A stretch of 30,445 nt of DNA from positions 1 to 30,445 of the forward strand of contig DATIHS010000016.1 in assembly GCA_035480475.1 (NCBI GenBank). Reading direction: 5' to 3'. The first letter of the stretch is position 1. Every line of letters begins with the position of its first letter. The notes below the pieces were generated by a model that was given only the letters and a program-made list of their open reading frames with translations, was not told where the DNA came from and searched no databases. This document shows, one piece after another, positions 1 to 17,462 of the stretch. Source of the DNA: Patescibacteria group bacterium. Its GTDB lineage: Bacteria > Patescibacteriota > Saccharimonadia > Saccharimonadales > DATIHS01. Made by a program: the position numbers and the translations under genes.

Positions 1-412
1 AATTATTGAGTCCGCATGGGGTTATGCGACATATTTACGACCTTTTCTCATCCGTTAATTACAAATCAGTGTGGCAAAACTCAGAAGTCTTTTTAGGGGT
101 TTCTGCATAAAAATAGAGGCTTTTCTAACCTGTTAATTGCAAAACAGTATGCAGAAACTATTGGACTCTGCTAGGGTTTTTTCTACAAAATTGACACATT
201 TTGCTCTCTGTTAAAGCCAAAACAGTGTAAAAAAATTAAACCTAGTATTTGTATTGGCAAAGATACTTGGCATGTCAGCCCCACAGGGCCAGTGTGTGCG
301 GTTTTAAGGGGTTGGGTTGCATATCCCTCGGTCTGCTTGCCGATCAGGGCTTTTGCAGCCCCTTGCAAAACCCATTTAATATAAATTAGCACTAGCTTAA
401 TTGGCCATTTTT

Positions 413-421
413 TGGTATAAT
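413..421 (+). promoter_or_regulatory. Extended -10 promoter (TGGTATAAT) upstream of the small ORF and recombinase
   Basis: Perfect TATAAT at 416-421 with a TG extension, about 107 nt before the ATG at 529. Confidence 0.5.
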
Positions 422-528
422 GTAGGTAGAGTTGGATGAGTATTTGTACGATACTCATCCGTCACCTAAGCAAAGGTTAGACTAAATCAACTTAAACGGG
501 CATTGACCGAAAGGTTCTTGCCGGAATA

Positions 529-711
529 GTGATGAAGGATAACCTTTCTTTTATTATTGAGGCAGAAAACAAGAAGCTCATTAAGCCCAGGCTTAAAGAG
601 GCTGTTGTTAAGCAGAAAAAATTAACCAAGCGTGAACTACTAGAGTTGGCAAACTATTTATATTCACGTTACGAAACTACCAAAAAGCCCTTGAACATGA
701 GGCCTGACTGA
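529..711 (+). CDS. Small basic hypothetical protein (60 aa), candidate recombination directionality factor
   Basis: Lys-rich ORF with a helical C-terminal segment (KLTKRELLELANYLY), directly upstream of the recombinase. Positional analogue of 15681-15896. RDF role is inference. Confidence 0.5.
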   Translation: MMKDNLSFIIEAENKKLIKPRLKEAVVKQKKLTKRELLELANYLYSRYETTKKPLNMRPD

Positions 712-840
712 TCAATGAATGAAACGGGTACAAATCGTGGTAAACCAAGCAAATAATTTTATAGGTACTAAGGGCAGCTTCTGTAGCCATACCACATGGT
801 GTACCCTGGAAGCTGTCCTTCGTGCTTGTAAGGTGGCATT

Positions 841-2490
841 ATGACCCAAATCAAAGCTATCGTTAACGGCAGAGTTTCTACTCCCGATCAGCTAAAGAAC
901 AACAGCCTTGGCCGACAGGAGGAATCGGTAGAAATTGCTGCTGTTAAACTAGGTGCCGTTATTCCCGACGATGGTAGGTGGGCTGGTAGTGTCAGTAGTA
1001 AAGCTGGCACTAATGTAAAGCGAAAAGACCTGCTGGCAATGGTTGAATACTGTAAAAAACACAAAGACGTAAAGTATGCCATTTTTGATGAGTATGACCG
1101 CTATATGCGCAGCGTCAATGAAGGACCGTATTTTGAAGTTGTATTCCAGCAGCTGGGTGTGAAAGTTTGGTATGCCTCAGAGAGCGACCAGTTCAATGGA
1201 GATGACGCAATGGCTAAGTTTCAGCGAGCTATGAGTGCATACCGAGCAGAAGGAAGCAATGAAGAGCGTCAGCGCAAGTCCGTACATGGCCACGCAAAAG
1301 CTATACGAGAAGGTCGCCACACATTTCCAACCAAACCTGGCTACATAAAGGGTGAGATACCTGGCGTTAAGGTTCCTCACCCCGTCACATTTGAGCCGTT
1401 TCAGACCGCCCTTAGAGAAGTAATTAGCGGGCTTTACGCCCCAACCGAAGCATTAAAACGACTGAACAAGAGTGACTTCACCAAGGTTCATGCTCCCTGG
1501 TCTATGGACAAGTTCCGACAATTCGGTTGTGACCCCTACTACGCTGGCATTTTAGTTATGGACAAGCAGGTTCAAGAGCGCAACGAGTGTGGGCAACACG
1601 AACCAATGATAAGCCTTGAGGACCATGAAGAGTTGGTACGCATATTTACAGGTAAGTTCAAGCCACGAGGGGCAAAAAAGCAGTACAACCCAGACTTCCC
1701 AATGAACAAGGTTCTGGTTTGCGAAGACTGTGGAGGTGAAGTCAAATTCACTGGCTCCAAAAAAAGCAATGGTTATCACCGCAAAAACACCACCTATTAT
1801 TGGAAGTACGAGTGTCGAGGTTGCCACAAGTCATACCACCGCCACGAGGTACACGGCAAAATAACTGAGCGCCTAAACGAAATTCAATACACAGGCAAGC
1901 AACGACAGGAACTTATAGAAGCCTTAGCAACAGTATGGGGTCAGAAAAGGAAAGACAAGGTCCAACAGGTCAAGGCGCTAGAACAGCGTTCTGAGGTTCT
2001 ACAGCAAACCAAGTCAAAGCTGGTAGTTGAAATGGCGCAAGCAGACCCCGAATACAAGCAAGACCTGAAAGACGAAATTGACAAAATAAAAACGCAGATT
2101 GCCAATACTGAGACACTAGTTAGCCAGTCAGATGAGCTTCAAGAAGACTTGCTAGACTTCGTGAAGTTTGGACTGGAATACACCAATACACTAATGGACG
2201 ACTGGTGGAAGTTAGACCACGAGGAACGGGTGCAGTGCCAACAATTGATATTACCAGGCGGAATTTCGTTTAATTCACAGAAAAAAGTTGGCACCACCCA
2301 AATCTCGCCAATTTACACCTTACAGCCAAACAAAAAAGACCTTCGGATTGACCGAAAGTCCCTTATGGTGGAGCTGGCGGGTAATGCTCCCGCGTCCGCT
2401 AGCTTAAAAGTTAGTCTGTCCTACAGGCTTATGACATTTGACGTTGAGACCGATGGCATAATAAATGTCCAAAAAGCCAACGATCTTTAA
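841..2490 (+). CDS. Large serine recombinase (resolvase + recombinase + zinc-ribbon/coiled-coil); last 41 aa encoded by antisense tmRNA
   Basis: N-terminal GRVST catalytic motif, DRYMRS, CEDC...YECRGC zinc ribbon, then a long coiled coil. Confidence 0.92.
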   Translation: MTQIKAIVNGRVSTPDQLKNNSLGRQEESVEIAAVKLGAVIPDDGRWAGSVSSKAGTNVKRKDLLAMVEYCKKHKDVKYAIFDEYDRYMRSVNEGPYFEVVFQQLGVKVWYASESDQFNGDDAMAKFQRAMSAYRAEGSNEERQRKSVHGHAKAIREGRHTFPTKPGYIKGEIPGVKVPHPVTFEPFQTALREVISGLYAPTEALKRLNKSDFTKVHAPWSMDKFRQFGCDPYYAGILVMDKQVQERNECGQHEPMISLEDHEELVRIFTGKFKPRGAKKQYNPDFPMNKVLVCEDCGGEVKFTGSKKSNGYHRKNTTYYWKYECRGCHKSYHRHEVHGKITERLNEIQYTGKQRQELIEALATVWGQKRKDKVQQVKALEQRSEVLQQTKSKLVVEMAQADPEYKQDLKDEIDKIKTQIANTETLVSQSDELQEDLLDFVKFGLEYTNTLMDDWWKLDHEERVQCQQLILPGGISFNSQKKVGTTQISPIYTLQPNKKDLRIDRKSLMVELAGNAPASASLKVSLSYRLMTFDVETDGIINVQKANDL

Positions 2491-2746
2491 TCCGTTTGTC
2501 TTAGCGCTCCCTACGGATCAGTGAGGTGCGAGCGTCCTTGGAAATATGACATCACGGGACACTACCAAGGCGTCGTGTCCAGGATGCAATTCGTTCTTAG
2601 GCGAATTGAAGTGCTGGCTTTAGCGAAAACGCTGAAGCCAAGCGACTGACAAATGTCTTTGCATTTATTCAGGGTTTGCCTATAACGCTGACAAGCGGCC
2701 TGCTGAGCTAACTGTTAAGGTCCAACGTCGAGCTAAAATCAGCCCC
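2366..2746 (-). ncRNA. ssrA: tmRNA (381 nt)
   Basis: 5' GGGGCTG pairs with 3' CAGCTCC-A-CCA including the G3.U alanyl identity pair; T arm GCGGG/CCCGC; internal tag ORF after an AATAAAT-GCA resume context. Confidence 0.95.
2597..2662 (-). other. tmRNA tag reading frame AKTFVSRLASAFSLKPALQFA*
   Basis: Resume codon GCA at 2662-2660 after GAATAAAT; 21 sense codons, then TAA at 2599-2597. Confidence 0.8.
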
Positions 2747-2776
2747 ATATCGTGTCACCTCTGTTGTGACTATTGC

Positions 2777-2785
2777 ATTATACCA
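2777..2785 (-). promoter_or_regulatory. Extended -10 (TGGTATAAT) for ssrA
   Basis: Perfect TATAAT plus TG about 30 nt upstream of the mature 5' end; small leader hairpin GTCAC/GTGAC at 2754-2770. Confidence 0.55.
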
Positions 2786-2816
2786 CTTATGTCAATATTT
2801 TGCTAGGGGATATAGC

Positions 2817-4127
2817 TTAGTGTGTTGCGGCTTCAGAGCCCCAGTCTTCATGCAGCAAGTGAGCAGGCGCCCGGTAGATGATCAGGAATATCAGGCCGCC
2901 TGCGAGCACGGTAATACCGCCCGCGAGCACCGGCACGCTGACGCCAATTTCGGCCAAGTAACCACTCATGGCGGCCGGAATCGTTTGAGCCAGCGATTGC
3001 ACTGAGGCGTTAATGCCCAGCACTTCGCCCTGAATATGTTTATCGGCCGAAATGCTCACCAGGGCCGTAAGGTTGGCAATGGAGTTACCAAGGAAGAAGG
3101 CGAACACGGGGGTGATCCACAATAAGTGGGTCGTATTGCTCGCCAAGAGGTACATAAACAAGGTCAGGCCTGAGCCTATCACGCTGAATCGTACCACTTG
3201 GAATGGCCGCAAACGTTTGGCTAGTAGTGGCGTAAATATGGCCTGCGTAAGCGCAATCCAGATGCCCACAAACGCAAAGAAGTCACCTATATTGTTAGCC
3301 GAAAAGTGCAGCTTTTGGATGAGCATAACCTGAAAGAACGTTTGGAAGAAGGCAAAGCCGCCCCAGAACAAGAAAACCGTGGGAAAGACCACACGCAAAC
3401 CTGGATATGACATGGCAGTAATGATATTACGCACGGACTGGCTCACTTTAAGTTTCAGATGTTTCAGTTGCTTGTTGGTCTCAGGCAGGAGGGTAATGAT
3501 TAGTAAGAAGTTTATGGAGCTCAAGACAGCCGTAAACCAGAATGGCAGGGCCGGACTAAACCAATGGGGTGTCGTAAACAGGCCATAAACGTTAACGTGT
3601 GGTGAGCCAAGTTTGGCGCCTAAGTACGGACCGAGGACAAAGCCGAAACCGAACGCCGCACCAATGAGGGCAAAACGTTTGGCACGGTCTTTGGGAGGTG
3701 TGACATCAGCAATGACGGCTTGGGCGACACTTAAGTTTCCACCGGTAATACCATCGAGCGAACGGCTGAAGAAAAGCAACGGTATGTTTCTGGTAATAAT
3801 ACCAATCGCAAACAGTACATAACCCACTGCCGTACCAAAGATGCTAAAGCCCAAGATAGGCTTGCGACCGAAGCGGTCTGATAACTGGCCTAAAATAGGT
3901 GTGGATAGAAACTGCATAAACGGATAAATGGCCAGTAGCCAGCCCAACAGGATAAGGCCACCTTTATACGTCCAACCTGCCGGTAAAAGATAATAGGCGG
4001 AATGGGGGTTGGCCAACAGCTGGGGAATAATCGGGATCAAGATACCGACGCCTAAAACGTCCAGAAAAATAGTAAAGATAACTATCGGAAGGGCTTTGCC
4101 TTCCAGCCGACGTTTAATTGTATCCAT
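2817..4127 (-). CDS. MFS efflux transporter, DHA1/TetA-like
   Basis: Motif A GQLSDRFGRKP, antiporter motif C GAAFGFGFVLGP, about 12 hydrophobic segments; SD AAGGAGG inside the end of marR. Confidence 0.9.
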   Translation of the reverse strand: MDTIKRRLEGKALPIVIFTIFLDVLGVGILIPIIPQLLANPHSAYYLLPAGWTYKGGLILLGWLLAIYPFMQFLSTPILGQLSDRFGRKPILGFSIFGTAVGYVLFAIGIITRNIPLLFFSRSLDGITGGNLSVAQAVIADVTPPKDRAKRFALIGAAFGFGFVLGPYLGAKLGSPHVNVYGLFTTPHWFSPALPFWFTAVLSSINFLLIITLLPETNKQLKHLKLKVSQSVRNIITAMSYPGLRVVFPTVFLFWGGFAFFQTFFQVMLIQKLHFSANNIGDFFAFVGIWIALTQAIFTPLLAKRLRPFQVVRFSVIGSGLTLFMYLLASNTTHLLWITPVFAFFLGNSIANLTALVSISADKHIQGEVLGINASVQSLAQTIPAAMSGYLAEIGVSVPVLAGGITVLAGGLIFLIIYRAPAHLLHEDWGSEAATH

Positions 4128-5546: not shown

Positions 5547-6800
5547 TTACCAGTTGTGGTAGGCCACCCAATGCTGGTAGGAGCCCGCCCAGCCACCGTA
5601 ACGGGAGGCGTAGCCGCTACACCACCTCAGCTGTGTGACCGGATTGGTTTGCCAATCAGCGCCTGCGGAGGCCATTTTGCTGCCCGGTGTTGATTGGCAC
5701 ATACCATAACCATAGCCATTTGGAATGTAGGCCGGTGCATAACCTGGGCACGCGCCCGGGTTGCCTTGGAGCTTAGTGGGGCACCAACCAGATTCGTGGC
5801 TGACAATATAGTCAACATAGGGGTAATCGCCTGAGCTAATGCCTGCGGCCGCCATAAGGCTACTGTGGTCGGGTGAGATATATATGGCTTTGCCGCGGGC
5901 AATGATCTGGGTCACTGGTGGCACCGTTATGACTTCTTGAATAATGTGACGGCCAGTTTCTTTGCCGTTTTGCAGGTCGAGCTGATATGTTACGAGTTTC
6001 TTGCCGGCACTACCCTGTTGACGAATGGCTGTGGTTCCAAAACTCAGGCTGGGGTCTTCAACGGTCTGGGTATCAACCGGTATGGCGACTTCAGAGGTCA
6101 CAATCTGGGTACCCGTGCGTGTGACAAAAACTGATAGGTTCGGCGTTAGGGGGGTTTTGGCATCTGGCTGGACGGAATCACCACTACCCAGTTTGATATT
6201 CTTCTCTTTTAAAAGGTCACCGACGGTTTTGGACCGGGTCCGAATGGTCGCTTGGGTGCCATAGAGGTTGAGGTTGGCAGGGGTCGCTCGATCAATGACA
6301 ATTTTTTCGCCAATGACCTGGTCTTTTAGGACGTTGGAGGAGACTTCTTGCTTGAGGTCATCTTCTGGATATACCTGAATGCCCACCTGGGCAGCCACAC
6401 TGCGCGGTGTCGTAGCAGCGCTGAGGGCCTGGACCCGTTTGTCACCGTCAAAAATGGTTACCGGCCGGGCACGGTAAACATTAATACGAAAGTTGTCGTT
6501 ATCTATTGGCGTATCACGTGAAGGTTCAACAATGTCACCGTCGTTCAAGTTAACCTTGGCGCGCACAAGGAAGTCGTTGACATCAATCGCCCGGGTCGGG
6601 ACAATTTGGCGCTTGCCATCAAGGGAAAGTTGCACGACGTGGGAGTCATTGGCACCAATTGTCTGGCCGCCAAGGATGACAGAAGCAAACATCGTACCAA
6701 AACTGAGGAAAATTAAAGTCACGACCGGTACGGCAAAGGGGTGCCGGTGAAATTCACGCGCCATCAGACGCTGCAGGAAGTTTGCTTTACGTTTGGCCAT
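5547..6800 (-). CDS. RpfB/YabE-like cell-wall protein: N-terminal TM, DUF348 repeats, G5 domain, C-terminal lytic transglycosylase-like domain
   Basis: TM at residues ~22-44; repeated ubiquitin-like TxA.TV...L...GI units; G5 segment GSAGKKLVTY...VTQIIARG; catalytic-type HESGW and NPVTQLRW..GY..RYG; classic position upstream of ksgA. Confidence 0.85.
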   Translation of the reverse strand: MAKRKANFLQRLMAREFHRHPFAVPVVTLIFLSFGTMFASVILGGQTIGANDSHVVQLSLDGKRQIVPTRAIDVNDFLVRAKVNLNDGDIVEPSRDTPIDNDNFRINVYRARPVTIFDGDKRVQALSAATTPRSVAAQVGIQVYPEDDLKQEVSSNVLKDQVIGEKIVIDRATPANLNLYGTQATIRTRSKTVGDLLKEKNIKLGSGDSVQPDAKTPLTPNLSVFVTRTGTQIVTSEVAIPVDTQTVEDPSLSFGTTAIRQQGSAGKKLVTYQLDLQNGKETGRHIIQEVITVPPVTQIIARGKAIYISPDHSSLMAAAGISSGDYPYVDYIVSHESGWCPTKLQGNPGACPGYAPAYIPNGYGYGMCQSTPGSKMASAGADWQTNPVTQLRWCSGYASRYGGWAGSYQHWVAYHNW

Positions 6801-6891: not shown

Positions 6892-9024
6892 TCATAATTT
6901 TTCGAGGGGAGCGAAACTAACGTTCAGTTTTTTGGTCCCACGGCCTTTAAAATAAATGGTCACGTTGTCGCCTTCTACTTCTACCACCGTGCCCACACCA
7001 AAGATTTCATGCTTGACGCCATCGCCCTCATTCAATTCGGGGATATAGCGTGGCTCGGCGGTGGCAAAACGATTGTCGTGCGCGTAGTTATCCTCAAAAC
7101 CGGAAGCAAGGTGCACTTCCCCATCGATTTCACTCAAAAAACGTGAAGGCGGATTGTGCTGTGTGCCCCCGTAGAGCAGGCGTGTGGTGGCATGTAACAA
7201 ATAAAGCTCTTCCTTGGCACGCGTCATTCCCACATAACAAAGCCGGCGCTCTTCTTCCATTTCGGCTTGGTCGTAGAGCGCCCGTGAATGCGGAAAAACA
7301 GTTTCTTCCATACCGATCATGAAGACCACCGGAAATTCCAGCCCCTTGGCGGCGTGCAGCGTCATGAGGGTCACCGCATTGCTACCAAAATCCGCACTGT
7401 CAATGTCGCTGACAAGCGAAACTTCCTCCAGGAAGGTGTCGAGGCCAAAACTTTGGTAACTTTGGGCCACGCTTAAGAGTTCGCGCACGTTTTCTTGCCT
7501 GGTTTCGCCTTGGGGTGTTTTGTCGTCTAAATACGCCATGTAGCCCAGACGCTTAATCAAACTATCGAGCAATACAGGTAAGCTCGTTTCATCCATTAGC
7601 CTACGGAAGCTTTCTAGGATGTCGGACAACTCTGCTAAGGCTTTTTGGGCTTTCGGTGTCAGGCTCGGGTGATGCGCAACTTCGTTTAAGGCTTCTTGCA
7701 AACCCATATCATTGACGGTTTGCCACGTTAAAAAGGCTTCTAGCGATTTGGTACCGATCCCCCGCGTAGGTACGTTGACAATGCGCTCAAAACTAACACG
7801 GTCACCTGGCTGATAGATAAGCCGCAGGTAGGCCATAATGTCTTTGATTTCCTTGCGGTCATAAAAGCGTTGGCCACCGACAATCCGGTAAGGCACGCCG
7901 TAACGTATGAATGTCTCTTCAATGGCGCGGCTTTGGGCGTTGGTGCGGTAGAGGACAGCAAAATCCTTGTACTGATAAGCACCTAAGTCAACCGCGGTCT
8001 TCACACGGCGAATAATGGCTTCGCCCTCGGCGCGCTCGTTGGCAATTTGCATAACTTGGATTGGTTTGCCTTCGCCTGCTTCTGTCCACAGCTTCTTGTC
8101 GGAGCGCTGGGAGTTCTTGGTAATAACGGCGTGGGCCGCGTCCAAGATAGCTTTGGTACTTCGGTAGTTTTGTTCCAATTTGATAATGGTTGCTTTTGGA
8201 TAATCACGCTCAAAGTTGAGAATGTTGCGGAAATCGGCCCCACGCCAGCTGTAAATGCTTTGCCAGTCGTCGCCAACGACGGCGATGTTGTGAGACGGGT
8301 TGGTCAGCAGTTTTACCAACTTATATTGGGCGGCGTTGGTATCTTGGTACTCATCAATCATGATGTAACTAAATTGACGTTGCCACTTCTGGCGAATTTC
8401 CGGATTGACTTGCAAGAGGTGTGCTACCCGGCCAATCAGGTCGTCAAAATCAAGGGCTCCGTTGTCTTTGAGGATTTTTTCGTAGCGTGGATACACTTGC
8501 ACGGTTGCTTGGTGCAGTGGACCTTTGCCCAGGCCCCCATACTCAGCCGGGGTGACGAGCTCATTTTTTGCACTACTAATTAAGCTGGCTAGGGTACGCG
8601 CTGGGAAAGCTTTTTCATCGAGCCGCAACTCTTTACTGGCCTGTTTAATGGCGCTTTGGCGGTCAGCCTCATCAAAGATAATAAAGTTACGTGGCACGGC
8701 TACATATTCACCATCTTGGCGTAAGATACGCACACAAATGCTGTGGAAGGTGCCCATAAATGGCATAAAGCCACGGTTTTCGGGGCGTTCACCTAACAGC
8801 GTGGCGACCCGTTCGCGCATTTCATGGGCGGCTTTATTCGTAAACGTTACGGCTAGAATGTTAAAAGACGTGGCTTTGCCGGTGTCAATCAAATAAGCAA
8901 TACGATGGGTCAAGGTTTTGGTTTTGCCAGAGCCTGCCCCAGCTAAAATTAACAGCGGTCCTTCTGTTGTCTCGACGGCCCGCTGCTGTTCGGCATTTAA
9001 ACCCGCGAATAAGTCTTTTGACAC
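6892..9024 (-). CDS. pcrA: ATP-dependent DNA helicase PcrA/UvrD
   Basis: AGAGSGKT Walker A, VTFTNKAA, IDEYQDTN, VGDDWQSIYSWRGA, LEQNYRS, YRTNAQSR, TLHAAKGLEF, EERRLCYVGMTRA, C-terminal Tudor-like domain. Confidence 0.97.
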   Translation of the reverse strand: MSKDLFAGLNAEQQRAVETTEGPLLILAGAGSGKTKTLTHRIAYLIDTGKATSFNILAVTFTNKAAHEMRERVATLLGERPENRGFMPFMGTFHSICVRILRQDGEYVAVPRNFIIFDEADRQSAIKQASKELRLDEKAFPARTLASLISSAKNELVTPAEYGGLGKGPLHQATVQVYPRYEKILKDNGALDFDDLIGRVAHLLQVNPEIRQKWQRQFSYIMIDEYQDTNAAQYKLVKLLTNPSHNIAVVGDDWQSIYSWRGADFRNILNFERDYPKATIIKLEQNYRSTKAILDAAHAVITKNSQRSDKKLWTEAGEGKPIQVMQIANERAEGEAIIRRVKTAVDLGAYQYKDFAVLYRTNAQSRAIEETFIRYGVPYRIVGGQRFYDRKEIKDIMAYLRLIYQPGDRVSFERIVNVPTRGIGTKSLEAFLTWQTVNDMGLQEALNEVAHHPSLTPKAQKALAELSDILESFRRLMDETSLPVLLDSLIKRLGYMAYLDDKTPQGETRQENVRELLSVAQSYQSFGLDTFLEEVSLVSDIDSADFGSNAVTLMTLHAAKGLEFPVVFMIGMEETVFPHSRALYDQAEMEEERRLCYVGMTRAKEELYLLHATTRLLYGGTQHNPPSRFLSEIDGEVHLASGFEDNYAHDNRFATAEPRYIPELNEGDGVKHEIFGVGTVVEVEGDNVTIYFKGRGTKKLNVSFAPLEKL

Positions 9025-11918: not shown

Positions 11919-13361
11919 TTATTCGAGCACCCGGACCTTTATAGTGTCGGTGGTCCCCACGACACCCGGATACCGTCCAGACGCTGTAATAATCATGTCG
12001 CCTTTTTCCAGTACTTTACTCTTGCGAAGCCAGTTGGTCAGCTTGGTCGCGGCCAGTTTATCATCTGGCCGTACATACGATTTGGTACCGTAAACGAGAG
12101 CTAGTTGGTTGGCTACGCGGAAATCACTTGTCACGGCAATCAGTGGCCGTCCGGGCCGTCTGGCTGCCAATTGCATTGCGGTCGCACCCGATTTCGTTTC
12201 AGCTACGATCGCTTTCGCCTTTATGGTATCTGCCAGGTCAATCACGGCGTTGCAAATGGCGACCTGCCGTTGCACGACTGTTGACGGCTCTACGGGAAAA
12301 ACTGCTTTGAGTGGGCTATTGGCTTCGGTGTATAGGATGATTCGCTTCATGGTCTCCACAGATGCAATGGGGTATTTGCCATTAGCCGTTTCGTCACTCA
12401 ACATGACGCAATCGGTCCCCACAATCACGGCAGTCGCCACATCCGAAACTTCTGCTCTGGTGGGTTCGGGCGCTTCCGTCATGCTAAAGAGCATTTGCGT
12501 GGCGACGATGGTCGGCTTGGCATAACGCTGTCCGAGGCCAATAAGCTGGCGTTGGATAATTGGCACAGATTCGGCCGGAGCCTCTACCGCGAGATCACCG
12601 CGAGCAATCATAATCATGTCTGTTTCCTGCACAATAGCTTCCATGTGTTCAACGGCGGAGCGCGTTTCGAATTTAGTAATAATTCGCGCGTCCATGCCCA
12701 GGTTAATCATTGCTCTGCGCAAAGCCCGGATATCTGTGGCGGTTTGCACAAAACTCTGGGCAACATAGTCAATATCCTGGGTGGAACCAAAGACTAAGTC
12801 TCGCTTATCCTTGGCAGTTATGACGTCACCCGCAAAATCTGTGTCAGGCAAGTTAAGCCCTTTGCGTCGTAACAAAATTCCATCGCTTTCAGCGCGGCCA
12901 TGTACCACACCATCTTTGACGCTGGTGACCGTTACCCGTACCTTACCATCGTACAAATACATGCTTTCACCGCGTTTGACCTTTTTGGACAGATCATACT
13001 GCAGCGGAATAATGGCGTCGCGTTCATAATCGGCGTTGAACTTAAAACGCAGGCTCTGTCCCTCGGTTACATTTATAATCCCTTCGAAATCACCGAGGCG
13101 GATTTTGGGGCCCTGAAGGTCCTGGATGATAGCGACTGGTTTGCCGTATTCAGTTGCTGCCTGGCGGATCCATTTAATCTGCTGTTCGCGTTCTTCGTAG
13201 GTGCCGTGGCTGAAGTTCAAACGAATACCATTTGCCCCAGCCTTTATGAGCTTAAGGATGGCTGCGTAACTACTGGTAGCAGGACCAAGGGTGGCAATGA
13301 TCTTGGTCCGCTTAAATTTCCCAATAGGAACATTCGGTGTCTTATGCGTCGCTTCCGTCAT
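11919..13361 (-). CDS. pyk: Pyruvate kinase
   Basis: RTKIIATLGP, RLNFSHG, DLQGPKIR, MIARGDLAVE, ATQML.SM...P.PTRAEVSDVA, VMLSDETA.GKYP. Confidence 0.97.
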   Translation of the reverse strand: MTEATHKTPNVPIGKFKRTKIIATLGPATSSYAAILKLIKAGANGIRLNFSHGTYEEREQQIKWIRQAATEYGKPVAIIQDLQGPKIRLGDFEGIINVTEGQSLRFKFNADYERDAIIPLQYDLSKKVKRGESMYLYDGKVRVTVTSVKDGVVHGRAESDGILLRRKGLNLPDTDFAGDVITAKDKRDLVFGSTQDIDYVAQSFVQTATDIRALRRAMINLGMDARIITKFETRSAVEHMEAIVQETDMIMIARGDLAVEAPAESVPIIQRQLIGLGQRYAKPTIVATQMLFSMTEAPEPTRAEVSDVATAVIVGTDCVMLSDETANGKYPIASVETMKRIILYTEANSPLKAVFPVEPSTVVQRQVAICNAVIDLADTIKAKAIVAETKSGATAMQLAARRPGRPLIAVTSDFRVANQLALVYGTKSYVRPDDKLAATKLTNWLRKSKVLEKGDMIITASGRYPGVVGTTDTIKVRVLE

Positions 13362-13411
13362 TCCACATAGTGTAAACGGTTATGCTTTCCTCTGGCAAGA
13401 GACTCGGGTAG

Positions 13412-13440
13412 AAAGCTAAAAGCCCACCAAAGGTGAGCTT
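13412..13440 (-). terminator. Intrinsic terminator, probably the original tRNA-Glu terminator displaced by the insertion
   Basis: Minus strand AAGCTCACC-TTT-GGTGGGCTT (9 bp, one G.U) followed by TTAGCTTT; starts 4 nt after the ATGGTGA repeat copy. Confidence 0.7.
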
Positions 13441-13444
13441 CAAA

Positions 13445-13451
13445 ATGGTGA
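13445..13451 (+). repeat. att core ATGGTGA (left junction)
   Basis: Identical to 17387-17393; opens a 34-codon frame that is in frame with the recombinase after circularisation. Confidence 0.8.
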
Positions 13452-13549
13452 ACTATGTGAAGTCGAAATTGAACGCAATCTGTACTGAACTACTAGAAGT
13501 ATACAGCTACATGAGAGCAATAACAGTAGCAGAATACATCCCTGCTTAG
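13445..13549 (+). other. Detached 3' segment of the recombinase gene (MVNYVKSKLNAICTELLEVYSYMRAITVAEYIPA*)
   Basis: Open 35-codon frame starting exactly at the att core and ending 16 nt before the convergent stop at 13566. Confidence 0.7.
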
Positions 13550-13565
13550 AGTAGAACTATATAAG

Positions 13566-14102
13566 TTATTGAATCTGTCTAAGCAATTCCTGGTATGTAT
13601 CTATCGGGCTTCCTTCTTTAATTTGAATATGTATTTGATTAGGACGATTAGGTAACGCAGCTTCCATGTGTTCATAGAGCTGTGTAATTCTCGGAGTGTC
13701 ATCATTCGTCAATGGCGGCAAGCCAGCTTCGCCCCAAGTGCCACGATTTAATAATCTTTGGATTGCGTGGTCTTTATGGGTAGCTAAATAAAACTCATGA
13801 AACACCGCACCACCATTCGTAGCAATTTGTTCTAACTCTGCAACTTCCTCTGCGTTTGTAACGAGATAAGGCACGATAACATCATGGCCTAATTTGATTG
13901 CAACTCTTAGCATGTCTTTTGTTAATGCAAAAACGAGGTCACGTGCTTCGTCTTCATGGTCCAGCCAGTCGCCAATATTAATTATGAGCTGGTCGCCCTC
14001 AATAACCATTGCAAGTGGATGATTATCTACATACATACGTGCGATAGTTGTTTTACCTGAGCCAGCAAAACCATTTAACAAGATTACTTTTGGATTATTC
14101 AT
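13566..14102 (-). CDS. P-loop small-molecule/nucleotide kinase-like protein (AAA_33 / CPT-TmrB-like)
   Basis: VILLNGFAGSGKTT Walker A, IEGD, lid motif QRLLNRG; 178 aa. Confidence 0.8.
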   Translation of the reverse strand: MNNPKVILLNGFAGSGKTTIARMYVDNHPLAMVIEGDQLIINIGDWLDHEDEARDLVFALTKDMLRVAIKLGHDVIVPYLVTNAEEVAELEQIATNGGAVFHEFYLATHKDHAIQRLLNRGTWGEAGLPPLTNDDTPRITQLYEHMEAALPNRPNQIHIQIKEGSPIDTYQELLRQIQ

Positions 14103-14159
14103 TACATTATAGTAACAGATACAAGTACTGCTATTACGATGAATCAGGGTTTAGTAGGA

Positions 14160-14972
14160 CTACTGTTCCGAGCTGGGTGACGATGATTCTAATGGCGGTA
14201 ACTTAATAGAACCATCGAGTAGTCCCTTCAGATACGGCTTGAAGCGTACTGGGATGGTTTCATCCCTTTGTTCTTCGGGGACATGCACCAATGTCCAGCC
14301 TTCATCCATCACTTTTTCGCCTAAATATGCGAAATCTTCTTCGATAGCTTGCCAGACATTATCAAATATCATTCGTACATCTACAGGGTTATCTGGGTCG
14401 TGTTTCTCATTACGCCTATCTCCACTATGTAGAGCATTTCGATGTGAGGCTAGCATATTCTGCCATAGCTTGCGGTCCGTTCTAGCTACATCCACAAACT
14501 CCGAGGCGTTCGGATGTTCTTCAACAAATTTCTTAGCACCCTTTTCAAACTTCTTATCATCCTGGAATATAAAACCTATCTCAAAACCAAGCTCCTTCAT
14601 AAATAGCTGGAAACGATCCTTATATGCCCACCAAATCGAATTATAGAAGGCTACGTATTCTGCCTGCTGGTCAAATGTCGGAAGCTGATGAAAGCTCTTA
14701 GTATCTTCGATTCGACGCAAGTGAATACAGGCAATCTCTAACTGTTCAACGATCCTATCAAAGCGAAAATCTATCTCATCGCTATTTGGTAGTTGTATGT
14801 ACTTTAGGATGTCTTTAATCTGAATCCACACACGAGGTACAAAAAGCTCCTCAGTGCCAAAGTTAGAAGCTAGCTTAAGCGTAAAACCAGGCGGCAGATT
14901 GCCCGTGTACATTTTACCCTTCGGGCTGTTTTGCTTCTGTCGCTTTGGTTTAGTTCGCTTTTTCTTAGACAT
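14160..14972 (-). CDS. Hypothetical alpha-helical protein, possibly HEPN-like
   Basis: Long ORF. Start placed at ATG 14972 because TATAAT (14980-14985) lies 7 nt upstream. Contains W..ML.SHRNALH (RNxxH). Confidence 0.75.
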   Translation of the reverse strand: MSKKKRTKPKRQKQNSPKGKMYTGNLPPGFTLKLASNFGTEELFVPRVWIQIKDILKYIQLPNSDEIDFRFDRIVEQLEIACIHLRRIEDTKSFHQLPTFDQQAEYVAFYNSIWWAYKDRFQLFMKELGFEIGFIFQDDKKFEKGAKKFVEEHPNASEFVDVARTDRKLWQNMLASHRNALHSGDRRNEKHDPDNPVDVRMIFDNVWQAIEEDFAYLGEKVMDEGWTLVHVPEEQRDETIPVRFKPYLKGLLDGSIKLPPLESSSPSSEQ

Positions 14973-15033
14973 AGTCACCATTATATTATCTGACCCCAAA
15001 TTACTTAAAAAATAGCATACGCAACTGGTTAAG

Positions 15034-15267
15034 CTACCAGACTGTCAGAAAACTCATCATCAGCTTATTCCGATTGCTTTTAGCTGTTTCCATTTTTTCG
15101 GCGAACACAGATTCGTGATTTAGGTAGAAGTAATATGTCTGACGACTTATTCCTGCATATCTACAAGCGTCCTTAATATTAGAGTTGGTTTGTATTGCAG
15201 CTATTAGCTTAGTCATGACTTTAGCGTCTACTTTTAATGGTCTGCCTACGGCATTTTTCACAGTCAT
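15034..15267 (-). CDS. Small HTH protein resembling the N-terminus of phage terminase small subunits
   Basis: GRPLKVD...KLIAAI...NIKDACRYAGISRQTYY; SD AGGAG upstream. Confidence 0.7.
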   Translation of the reverse strand: MTVKNAVGRPLKVDAKVMTKLIAAIQTNSNIKDACRYAGISRQTYYFYLNHESVFAEKMETAKSNRNKLMMSFLTVW

Positions 15268-15477
15268 AAAAACTCCTGTATATTCTTACATTCCTACTAA
15301 TAATTATGACAGGTGGGCATTTTCTCAACTTCCATACATAAACCCATCCTAGACGATCCTAGAGCGTCACAGAGGGTATTCCTGTTCATGCCTTACATCG
15401 AGTATATGACTTGCGACAGTACATATATTATTTTCAGATATAATACGGTACTAACGGTATTTTATGCCGCAATTAAT

Positions 15478-15506
15478 TTGCTTTTTGTTAAACATAAGCG
15501 TATAAT
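15478..15506 (+). promoter_or_regulatory. Sigma70-type promoter TTGCTT-17-TATAAT for the small ORF and recombinase
   Basis: Hexamers at 15478-15483 and 15501-15506. Confidence 0.6.
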
Positions 15507-15680
15507 TATAGGCAGAGTAATCGTTGGGGTTCTCTCCTAGTCGCCACGCTATCATGTCTCATGAAAGTGTATGACCCAGCAGATGTAGCTAAGACCGTGG
15601 TTTTACTAAGACCACACAAGTAATTACAAATTAACTTGCTCTTCGTTTGGCGACTAAGACATCCAACGAAAGGGACAGAA

Positions 15681-15892
15681 GTGTCCAAAATATTAACTGT
15701 ACCTGCTGAGCAGCAGGTTATTTCCGTTAAGGAAGCACGGAAACTTTTAGGACAAAAAGCAAAAACACTAACCAACAAAGAACTCGAAATACTTATCCAA
15801 GAAACAGAAACAGTGGTGAGACTCTCTATACGAACTTTTATTAGTTCGAAAAACATTAAAAATAGTGGTAATATTGAAGGAGCAACATCACT

Positions 15893-15896
<4 letters not shown>
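15681..15896 (+). CDS. Small hypothetical protein (71 aa), candidate recombination directionality factor
   Basis: GTG at 15681 after AAGGGA; ISVKEARKLLG...LTNKELEILI helical motif; stop overlaps the recombinase start (ATGA). Confidence 0.65.

Positions 15897-17462
<1,566 letters not shown>

Follow-up and report, generated by a model that had tools for sequence, protein, structure and literature searches.

A large serine recombinase gene that runs through the CCA end of the tmRNA gene in a Saccharimonadales contig, and its relatives at tRNA and tmRNA gene ends

The recombinase gene and the tmRNA gene

The window analysed here is an entire contig of 30,445 nucleotides (C16; GenBank DATIHS010000016.1) from the assembly GCA_035480475.1 of a Patescibacteria group bacterium of the order Saccharimonadales, and its left end carries the gene of a large serine recombinase of which the 3' end lies on the antisense strand of the gene for transfer-messenger RNA (tmRNA), ssrA (Table 1). 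The open reading frame (ORF; 549 amino acids) overlaps the tmRNA gene, which is left intact, by 125 nt. The tmRNA gene is a full-length match to Rfam RF00023 (67.9 bits against a gathering score of 47, E 1.3e-24) and aligns at both ends with the tmRNAs of relatives. ARAGORN misses it, probably because of its departing T-loop (2366-2400, minus strand), which reads AGCAUUA and not the usual UUCGAAU-like sequence, related Saccharibacteria having GGCAGUA or UGCGAUU; Rfam also confirms the tmRNAs of relatives where ARAGORN failed.

The tmRNA ends in CUCCACCA, which reads TGGTGGAG on the opposite strand (2366-2373), with A2365 the first nucleotide outside the tmRNA gene. Codons 509 (ATG, 2365-2367) and 510 (GTG, 2368-2370) of the recombinase gene are thus the antisense of the CACCA end of the tmRNA, and the last 41 residues (509-549) are read from antisense tmRNA, bar the first base, A2365; on both points the sequence-only reading of this DNA agrees with the coordinates and with the tmRNA found by Rfam.

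The product contains a resolvase catalytic domain (PF00239, residues 10-159, E 7.9e-9), and the catalytic residues R11, S13, D86, R87 and R90 do not vary among 17 diverse members of the family, in which the four cysteines of a zinc ribbon (C297, C325, C328 and a partner) are also invariant or nearly so. PF07508 is not detected in this protein, and is present in the second recombinase of the window and in some homologues. The family profile matches the RD-ZD region of the A118 integrase, its recombinase/zinc-ribbon/coiled-coil part (chains 4kis and 6dnw, positions 220-438, E 9e-10). An AlphaFold model of a full-length relative, P0029 (mean pLDDT, the predicted local confidence score, 85), has strands at 291-332 and long helices at 351-452, and in a Foldseek search it retrieves the full-length serine integrase-att complexes 9dxd, 9dxh and 9iu2 (E 1e-10 to 1e-11). 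These domain, profile and structure matches identify the product as a large serine recombinase with the full domain architecture, which would carry out recombination. Together with the tmRNA found by Rfam they agree with the earlier claim that the gene of such an enzyme here crosses, at its 3' end, an attachment (att) site where the tmRNA gene ends in CCA.

The DNA to the left of the tmRNA gene, designated island 1, has a G+C content of 0.39-0.46, as against about 0.50-0.55 in the flank, where the gene order MarR-KsgA-G5-UvrD-TIM is syntenic with that of the locus of the closest relative (L093). Positions 616-2431 of the window are 80% identical to L093:5299-7117, within the island of that relative, and the cargo to the left of 616 is unrelated to L093. 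The contig starts inside island 1, at a 78-nt repeat array, so any upstream att copy of this island would lie outside the assembly; a left attachment site (attL) of island 1 was not found in the same genome by BLAST of window positions 1-2800, by a regular expression for TGGTGGAG over all contigs or by six-frame tail motifs.

Table 1. Features of the window that bear on the two islands
Feature	Position	Strand	Remark
Island 1, right-hand part	1..2365		element integrated at the tmRNA 3' end; attL beyond contig start
Small partner gene, 60 aa	529..711	+	upstream of integrase
Large serine recombinase gene, integrated (attR) form	841..2490	+	residues 1-510 (841-2370), conserved enzyme; residues 511-549 (2371-2490), antisense-tmRNA tail
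Hairpin and T-run in integrase 3' end	2324..2364	-	intrinsic-terminator-like; terminator scan
attR core (TGGTGGAGCT)	2366..2375		putative crossover somewhere in first 7 nt
tmRNA gene (ssrA)	2366..2746	-	integration target, left intact; Rfam RF00023, full length
Island 2	13446..17462		attL core ATGGTGA at 13446-13452; attR core at 17385-17391
Island 2 small ORF	15681-15896		precedes integrase
Island 2 integrase (int2)	15893..17428	+	runs across tRNA-Glu(ttc) CCA
Island 2 antisense terminator	17374 to 17359	-	in integrase 3' end
tRNA-Glu(ttc)	17388..17462	-	island 2 target

The bin to which the contig belongs consists of 103 contigs (691 kb), encodes CCA in all 35 of its tRNA genes and contains two serine recombinases only, both large. 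It also contains a second tmRNA gene (contig C85, 2064-2444, minus strand, locus L095), which at 90.9 bits outscores that of the window and has a plain hairpin and T-run terminator past its CCA; several tRNA genes are duplicated as well, and with the two tmRNA genes these imply that the bin mixes at least two genomes. Weak matches between contig C85 and window positions 400-730 were dismissed as chance, not being collinear. Contig C90 (locus L094) has, at about 3640-3720, a hairpin and T-run followed on the other strand by TGGTGGAGC, a stem-loop and GTCCGC, which resembles a tmRNA 3' end; Rfam gives no match there even at E <= 1, and it was treated as unexplained or chance.

Targets and attachment sites across the family

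More than 300 homologues retrieved by a database search cover 93-96% of the query, that is, up to about residue 510, and those that are named come from Saccharibacteria and Doudnabacteria. The C-termini of the best 120 homologues fall mainly into about 56 of the form MVEL.G.AP.S (antisense tmRNA) and about 50 of the form MVRV..L (antisense tRNA-Gly); a third class among the homologues consists of a few long conserved tails. Eighty loci were fetched from species-representative genomes, of which 73 were usable, and in 67 of these the ORF of the recombinase reads through the CCA end of a tRNA or tmRNA gene (tDNA) on the minus strand at the same aligned codon, a recurrence in independent loci that is far beyond chance and that confirms among homologues the junction described from the window alone. 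The targets are tRNA-Gly(gcc) in 36 loci, tmRNA in 10, tRNA-Lys in seven and tRNA-Arg in four, along with tRNA-Ala, tRNA-Ser, tRNA-Gly(tcc), tRNA-Glu and tRNA-Val; there are 12 kinds among the loci of relatives, and the tRNA-Glu(ttc) of the window makes a 13th.

Targets differ in their discriminator, which may be A, U or G, and some clades read the junction in a different frame, with TGG as Trp. Since discriminator and reading frame vary and TGG (the reverse complement of CCA) is always within the junction, the constraint is in the DNA and not in the peptide. Target identity clusters on the integrase tree (22 changes, compared with 35.7 in shuffles), and the enzyme of island 1 belongs to a clade of eight tmRNA-targeting members with 99% support. 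The sequence-only reading had proposed a family specialised on the universal NCCA end: TGG is indeed a constant of the junction, but each clade is specific for one tDNA, so the specialisation is on tDNA 3' ends and not on NCCA as such. Apparently this is a large, undescribed family of serine integrases that land on the ends of tRNA and tmRNA genes in Saccharibacteria-type bacteria; a full-text literature search found no paper on this integrase family of the candidate phyla radiation (CPR) itself.

The second large serine recombinase of the window, int2, lies in island 2 and runs across the CCA of tRNA-Glu. It is 23% identical to the island 1 enzyme (E 4e-23) in an alignment that extends up to their common Met-Val, and it forms a very long branch in the tree; the earlier view that the two enzymes are related and use different stable RNA genes thus holds, in the sense of one broad family with the junction at the same aligned position. 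Host DNA just left of the island 2 attL contains a hairpin with a T-run (13405-13441, -13.5 kcal/mol), which would follow tRNA-Glu in the empty site. The tail of island 2 is divergent and is not recognised by the hidden Markov model (HMM) of the family tail.

Both attachment sites are present in the closest relative (84% protein identity), the island of which spans 5249 bp between attL at 1803 and attR at 7052, next to an Rfam-confirmed tmRNA gene, and in which attL and attR share a core of 14 nt, CTTATGGTGGAGCT. At attL, a hairpin on the minus strand (-14.4 kcal/mol) with a weak T-run comes before the core TGGTGGAGCT, after which the integrase frame runs on as an open, conserved tail (MVELVLENWHQIEPELGRWKDILVIPW...) of about 38 codons. 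An upstream att copy with a terminator and an open frame, which had been expected for island 1, therefore exists in this relative, whereas the contig of island 1 itself starts inside the island. Seven further tmRNA-type pairs have the same layout, and other attL/attR pairs of the tmRNA clade have 7-12 nt in common from TGG and 0-4 nt to its left. A search with the tail HMM located attL in most loci and yielded 31 attL/attR pairs, with islands of 3.2-10.4 kb.

In these 31 pairs the identity of attL and attR begins at TGG, extends 0-4 nt leftward and spans 6-14 nt, the minimal cores being TGGTGGA for tmRNA elements, TGGTGC for tRNA-Gly and TGGAGG for tRNA-Lys, and the P' arm of the element diverges from the tmRNA before the T-arm. 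Judged by these alignments, the crossover must fall within the CCA, the discriminator or the final two or three positions of the acceptor stem, and the RNA gene would be restored whatever the exact dinucleotide. The earlier claim that the crossover is encoded as Met-Val is upheld insofar as the core lies at that position; the crossover itself is bounded only to the first 6-7 nt (TGGTGGA for tmRNA, TGGTGC for tRNA-Gly). No inverted internal copy of attP was found in the surveyed loci.

In attL of 34 loci the P' arm contains the motif AAAGTT(T/A)(T/A)CAC at +19 to +30 from TGG (AATTGGCAC in the tmRNA clade), which is fixed even at silent codon positions and is likely the recognition motif of the P' half-site. 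Codons 7-10 of the tail (AAAGTTTACAC) are likewise fixed at silent positions, as expected for an outer P' half-site motif about 26 bp from the core.

Terminator-like hairpin, tail, partner gene and signs of mobility

On the tmRNA strand, a hairpin of 13 base pairs (2364 to 2334, -16.3 kcal/mol, z -3.5) starts 1 nt past the CCA of the tmRNA gene and is followed by a T-run (2333 to 2324, UUUUUUGUUU) that is the antisense of conserved Asn-Lys-Lys-Asp (NKKD) codons of the integrase. An antisense hairpin with a T-run is present at 68 of 75 family junctions, as against 15 of 750 control antisense windows (2%). In the short-stem type, which has a UUCG loop, 91% of cells are paired and 49 double-sided changes were counted where 12 were expected, a figure reached by none of 500 shuffles; the G-U pairs of this type can form on the tRNA-sense strand alone. 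In other genomes, unoccupied tmRNA sites carry a hairpin with a T-run about 5-10 nt past the CCA, and a hairpin similar to that of the element is carried by the host B arm in 19 of 30 attL arms and in five of six empty sites. The hairpin and T-run encoded antisense in the integrase gene may thus replace the terminator that the tRNA or tmRNA gene loses upon integration.

The tail encoded by the excised form comprises about 33 conserved residues and is helical in the P0029 model (residues 501-539, pLDDT about 68-89). Entropy at the third position of tail codons 11-31 is 1.57, compared with 1.10 and 0.88, which is a coding pattern of variation. In the integrated form this tail is absent and the frame continues through antisense tmRNA to a chance stop, here 39 codons past Met-Val. 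By comparison of the two forms, integration swaps the conserved C-terminal tail of the integrase, and the tail may have a role of its own.

An ORF of at least 35 codons ends just before the integrase gene in 72 of the 73 loci. Similarity among these partners ranges from E 1e-13 to 6e-5 within the tmRNA clade, and an iterated HMM recovers 65 of the 72, with a common helical motif, ELA.FLY..Y. The 60-residue protein of the window has no Pfam match, and is a candidate directionality factor or regulator. In one tmRNA-targeting island a LOOT RNA (RF03000, 66 bits; L002:9191-9301, minus strand) lies about 450 nt upstream of the operon of small ORF and integrase. The cargo of relatives' islands consists of small genes, mostly without a Pfam match, with no recognisable transfer genes. 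The island of the closest relative encodes a 519-residue protein with a HEPN_AbiV domain in the precomputed Pfam annotation (L093:3427-4986, minus strand), so at least some islands carry defence genes of the abortive-infection type.

In four soil metagenomes from which the genome derives, the rough unitig depths of the island are 12.6, 6.07, 7.41 and 4.8, and those of the strain-specific tmRNA unitig are 26.6, 8.44, 15 and 7.42, a ratio of 0.47-0.72, and the assembly graph has a branch point precisely at 2365/2366. This deficit in island depth suggests that in a third to half of the cells with this tmRNA gene the site holds something else, or nothing. The alternative left flank was not recovered for this strain from Logan contigs, in which the loose ends at 2366 belong mostly to other species with the conserved tmRNA end. 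Two variants of window positions 344-472 (10 differences and one indel) coexist in one metagenome at depths of 6.9 and 8.2, so at least two haplotypes of island 1 exist. A 6.5-kb contig of a tRNA-Lys element (L073) begins, at 1-110, with an attP-type junction, in which 76 nt of an integrase 3' end continue via TGGAGG into the conserved tail frame, and has the same arm joined to tRNA-Lys at 5790-5913 (attR); it is either an excised circle or a tandem dimer. This junction and the depth difference are indirect signs of attP x attB recombination.

In the other six of the 73 loci the junction is not immediately followed by a tDNA; their enzymes fall within the tRNA-Gly group in the tree, and the loci look like tandem arrays. 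In one of them (L032) the junction is followed by a second element with a large serine recombinase of its own (12505-14169, plus strand, 554 residues) and a tRNA-Gly gene (14157-14232, minus strand), and in two others tRNA-Gly lies 1.4 kb (L043) and 9 kb (L051) further on; the closest relative of island 1 has an older attL-like site at 617. Given the likeness of the P arm to that of the host, attR may still serve as a target, and by its serial re-use the newest element would lie nearest the tDNA. The second recombinase of L032 is only distantly related (27% identity to the N-terminal part of int2), but it too ends in the CCA end of tRNA-Gly and has a hairpin in its 3' end, and the habit of using tDNA ends may therefore extend beyond one family.

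Alternative explanations and known systems

Very probably, island 1 is the integrase-proximal part of a small integrative island, of a kind that in relatives measures 3.2-8 kb, and was placed at the extreme 3' end of the tmRNA gene by its large serine recombinase. The attP site would lie inside the integrase gene: the P arm would be the last ~45 nt of the conserved coding sequence, the core TGGTGGA(GCT) would be the antisense of the tmRNA acceptor end plus CCA, and the P' arm would encode the conserved helical tail of about 33 residues. Recombination of attP with attB (host terminator, CCA and tmRNA body) within the first 6-7 nt of the core would leave the tmRNA sequence unchanged, and the integrase would lose its conserved tail and read antisense tmRNA to a chance stop, the displaced host terminator being replaced by the hairpin and T-run encoded antisense in integrase codons.

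Several observations weigh against this reconstruction. The left end of island 1, with its own putative attL, is absent from the assembly, and the bin is probably a mixture of two related genomes. Instead of empty sites, a second strain that has another occupant at the site could account for the lower island depth. The loci that lack an adjoining tDNA depart from the pattern unless they are read as tandem arrays, as they are here, and a search by eye for inverted symmetry of P/P' and B/B', by which the crossover dinucleotide might be placed, gave no consistent centre across subclades.

That the overlap is incidental, the gene being a resident invertase, resolvase or domesticated gene beside tmRNA with its real site elsewhere, would suit the detection by Pfam of the resolvase domain only and the want of a second att of island 1 in the assembly; this is very improbable, given that the same codon meets the CCA of 12 kinds of tDNA, that matching attL sites with the conserved tail frame lie 3-10 kb upstream in 31 loci, that the full large-serine-recombinase architecture is present and that both G+C content and depth of the island differ from those of the flank. 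Somewhat less remote, yet still unlikely, is an ssrA island of the type described in Dehalococcoides, with a crossover deeper in the gene (T-loop), a tmRNA 3' repeat of about 20 bp and the recombinase pair DsiB and DsiA. In those islands the gene for a 540-residue serine recombinase, DsiB, invariably overlaps the att site, and its frame meets no stop before antisense ssrA or the neighbouring island; the islands stack in tandem downstream of the single-copy ssrA, and the authors suggested that DsiB is fully functional or complete only on the circular form (McMurdie et al. 2011, BMC Genomics 12:287, PMC3146451). The overall design is the same, and in the gene described here the 3' end likewise includes att and the frame goes on into antisense ssrA. 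However, insertion in Dehalococcoides is in the T-loop with a 20-bp direct repeat, and goes with a six-gene module (the small serine recombinase DsiA, RecF-like, ParB, Mom and others; PMC3146451), whereas here the identity of attL and attR stops 7-14 nt from the CCA end, before the T-arm, the sole partner is a gene of ~60 codons, and there is no small second serine recombinase and no RecF, ParB or Mom module, the genome having two serine recombinases only, both large, and relatives' cargo mostly lacking Pfam matches. The conserved tail of the excised form, the built-in antisense terminator and the use by one family of at least eight tRNA species are further differences. The principle is accordingly not new, having a precedent in DsiB since 2011; what differs is the position and length of the core, the range of tRNA genes, the tail and the putative terminator.

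A different role may also be claimed for the integrase 3'-end hairpin, which instead of a terminator could be a palindrome in the P arm that binds protein, or a structure of the integrase mRNA. It falls in the ~25 bp expected of an attP half-site, and its likeness to the hairpin of host B arms could serve recognition and explain the re-use of attR. This has a modest chance of being right: the free covariation of the stem points to structure rather than sequence, the G-U pairs, the UUCG loop and the T-run all fit the tRNA-sense strand only, and the terminator and binding roles are compatible with each other. A more far-reaching idea, less likely than not, is that the family forms a self-contained landing module that reads the conserved acceptor/T-arm DNA of any tRNA-like gene. 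The P arm would be a portable terminator that mimics the host arm, so that attR stays a target and elements accumulate beside the tDNA, and the tail would be a switch of state, only the excised form being competent for integration and the integrated form being inert or biased toward excision.

The targeting of tRNA and tmRNA genes had been taken in the sequence-only reading as a trait of tyrosine integrases. This is the textbook view, and according to Islander no serine integrase is known to use a tDNA as its target (PMC4383910), but the DsiB serine recombinase is a precedent to the contrary (PMC3146451). Serine integrases have also been reported to prefer protein-coding sequences (PMC13626063, PMC8092301). 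Like the islands of tyrosine integrases detected by Islander and TIGER (PMC4383910), those described here target the 3' part of a tDNA, leave the gene restored and line up in tandem at hot spots; unlike them, they depend on an enzyme of an unrelated superfamily and have cores of 6-14 nt, where the repeats of tyrosine-integrase islands are typically tens of bp. No tyrosine-integrase feature was found at this locus, the recombinase at the junction being of the serine type only and the genome having no repeat of the tmRNA 3' end longer than the core, bar the tmRNA gene of C85.

With the integrases of A118/LI, Bxb1, phiC31 and SPbeta (SprA) the family shares the catalytic domain, the recombinase domain, the zinc ribbon with an inserted coiled coil, short cores and, likely, a small accessory protein. 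The serine integrases of phages and of integrative and conjugative elements differ in that they insert into protein-coding genes and have attP beside, not within, the integrase gene. In the myxophage Mx8 (IntP/IntX), which uses a tyrosine integrase, attP is inside a coding sequence and integration alters the C-terminus of the encoded protein. Integration-dependent immunity in mycobacteriophages, also based on tyrosine integrases, places attP in the coding sequence of the repressor, the C-terminus of which changes (PMC8092301). As in Mx8 and the mycobacteriophages, integration here would alter an encoded C-terminus; unlike in those systems, it is a serine integrase itself that changes. The streptococcal element IME_Spy2096_SNF2 has a serine integrase with the recombination site inside the integrase gene (PMC5357655), but its target, snf2, is protein-coding, unlike the tDNA targets of the present family. 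Among Prochlorococcus tycheposons and related cryptic elements, 27 of 937 carry large serine recombinases.

The family abounds in Saccharibacteria and other CPR bacteria, and would represent serine integrases that target tDNA, a habit that textbooks and Islander tie to tyrosine integrases, with a very short core, with the RNA gene left undamaged and with a terminator of their own. Since large DNA is by preference inserted in one direction with serine integrases, a family with tDNA-end targets and many target switches is a natural resource for work on half-site recognition and on its redirection. The family is also a testable example of an enzyme of which the C-terminus would report the state of integration of its element, and in these tiny genomes it would account for much of the traffic of small accessory genes beside tRNA genes.

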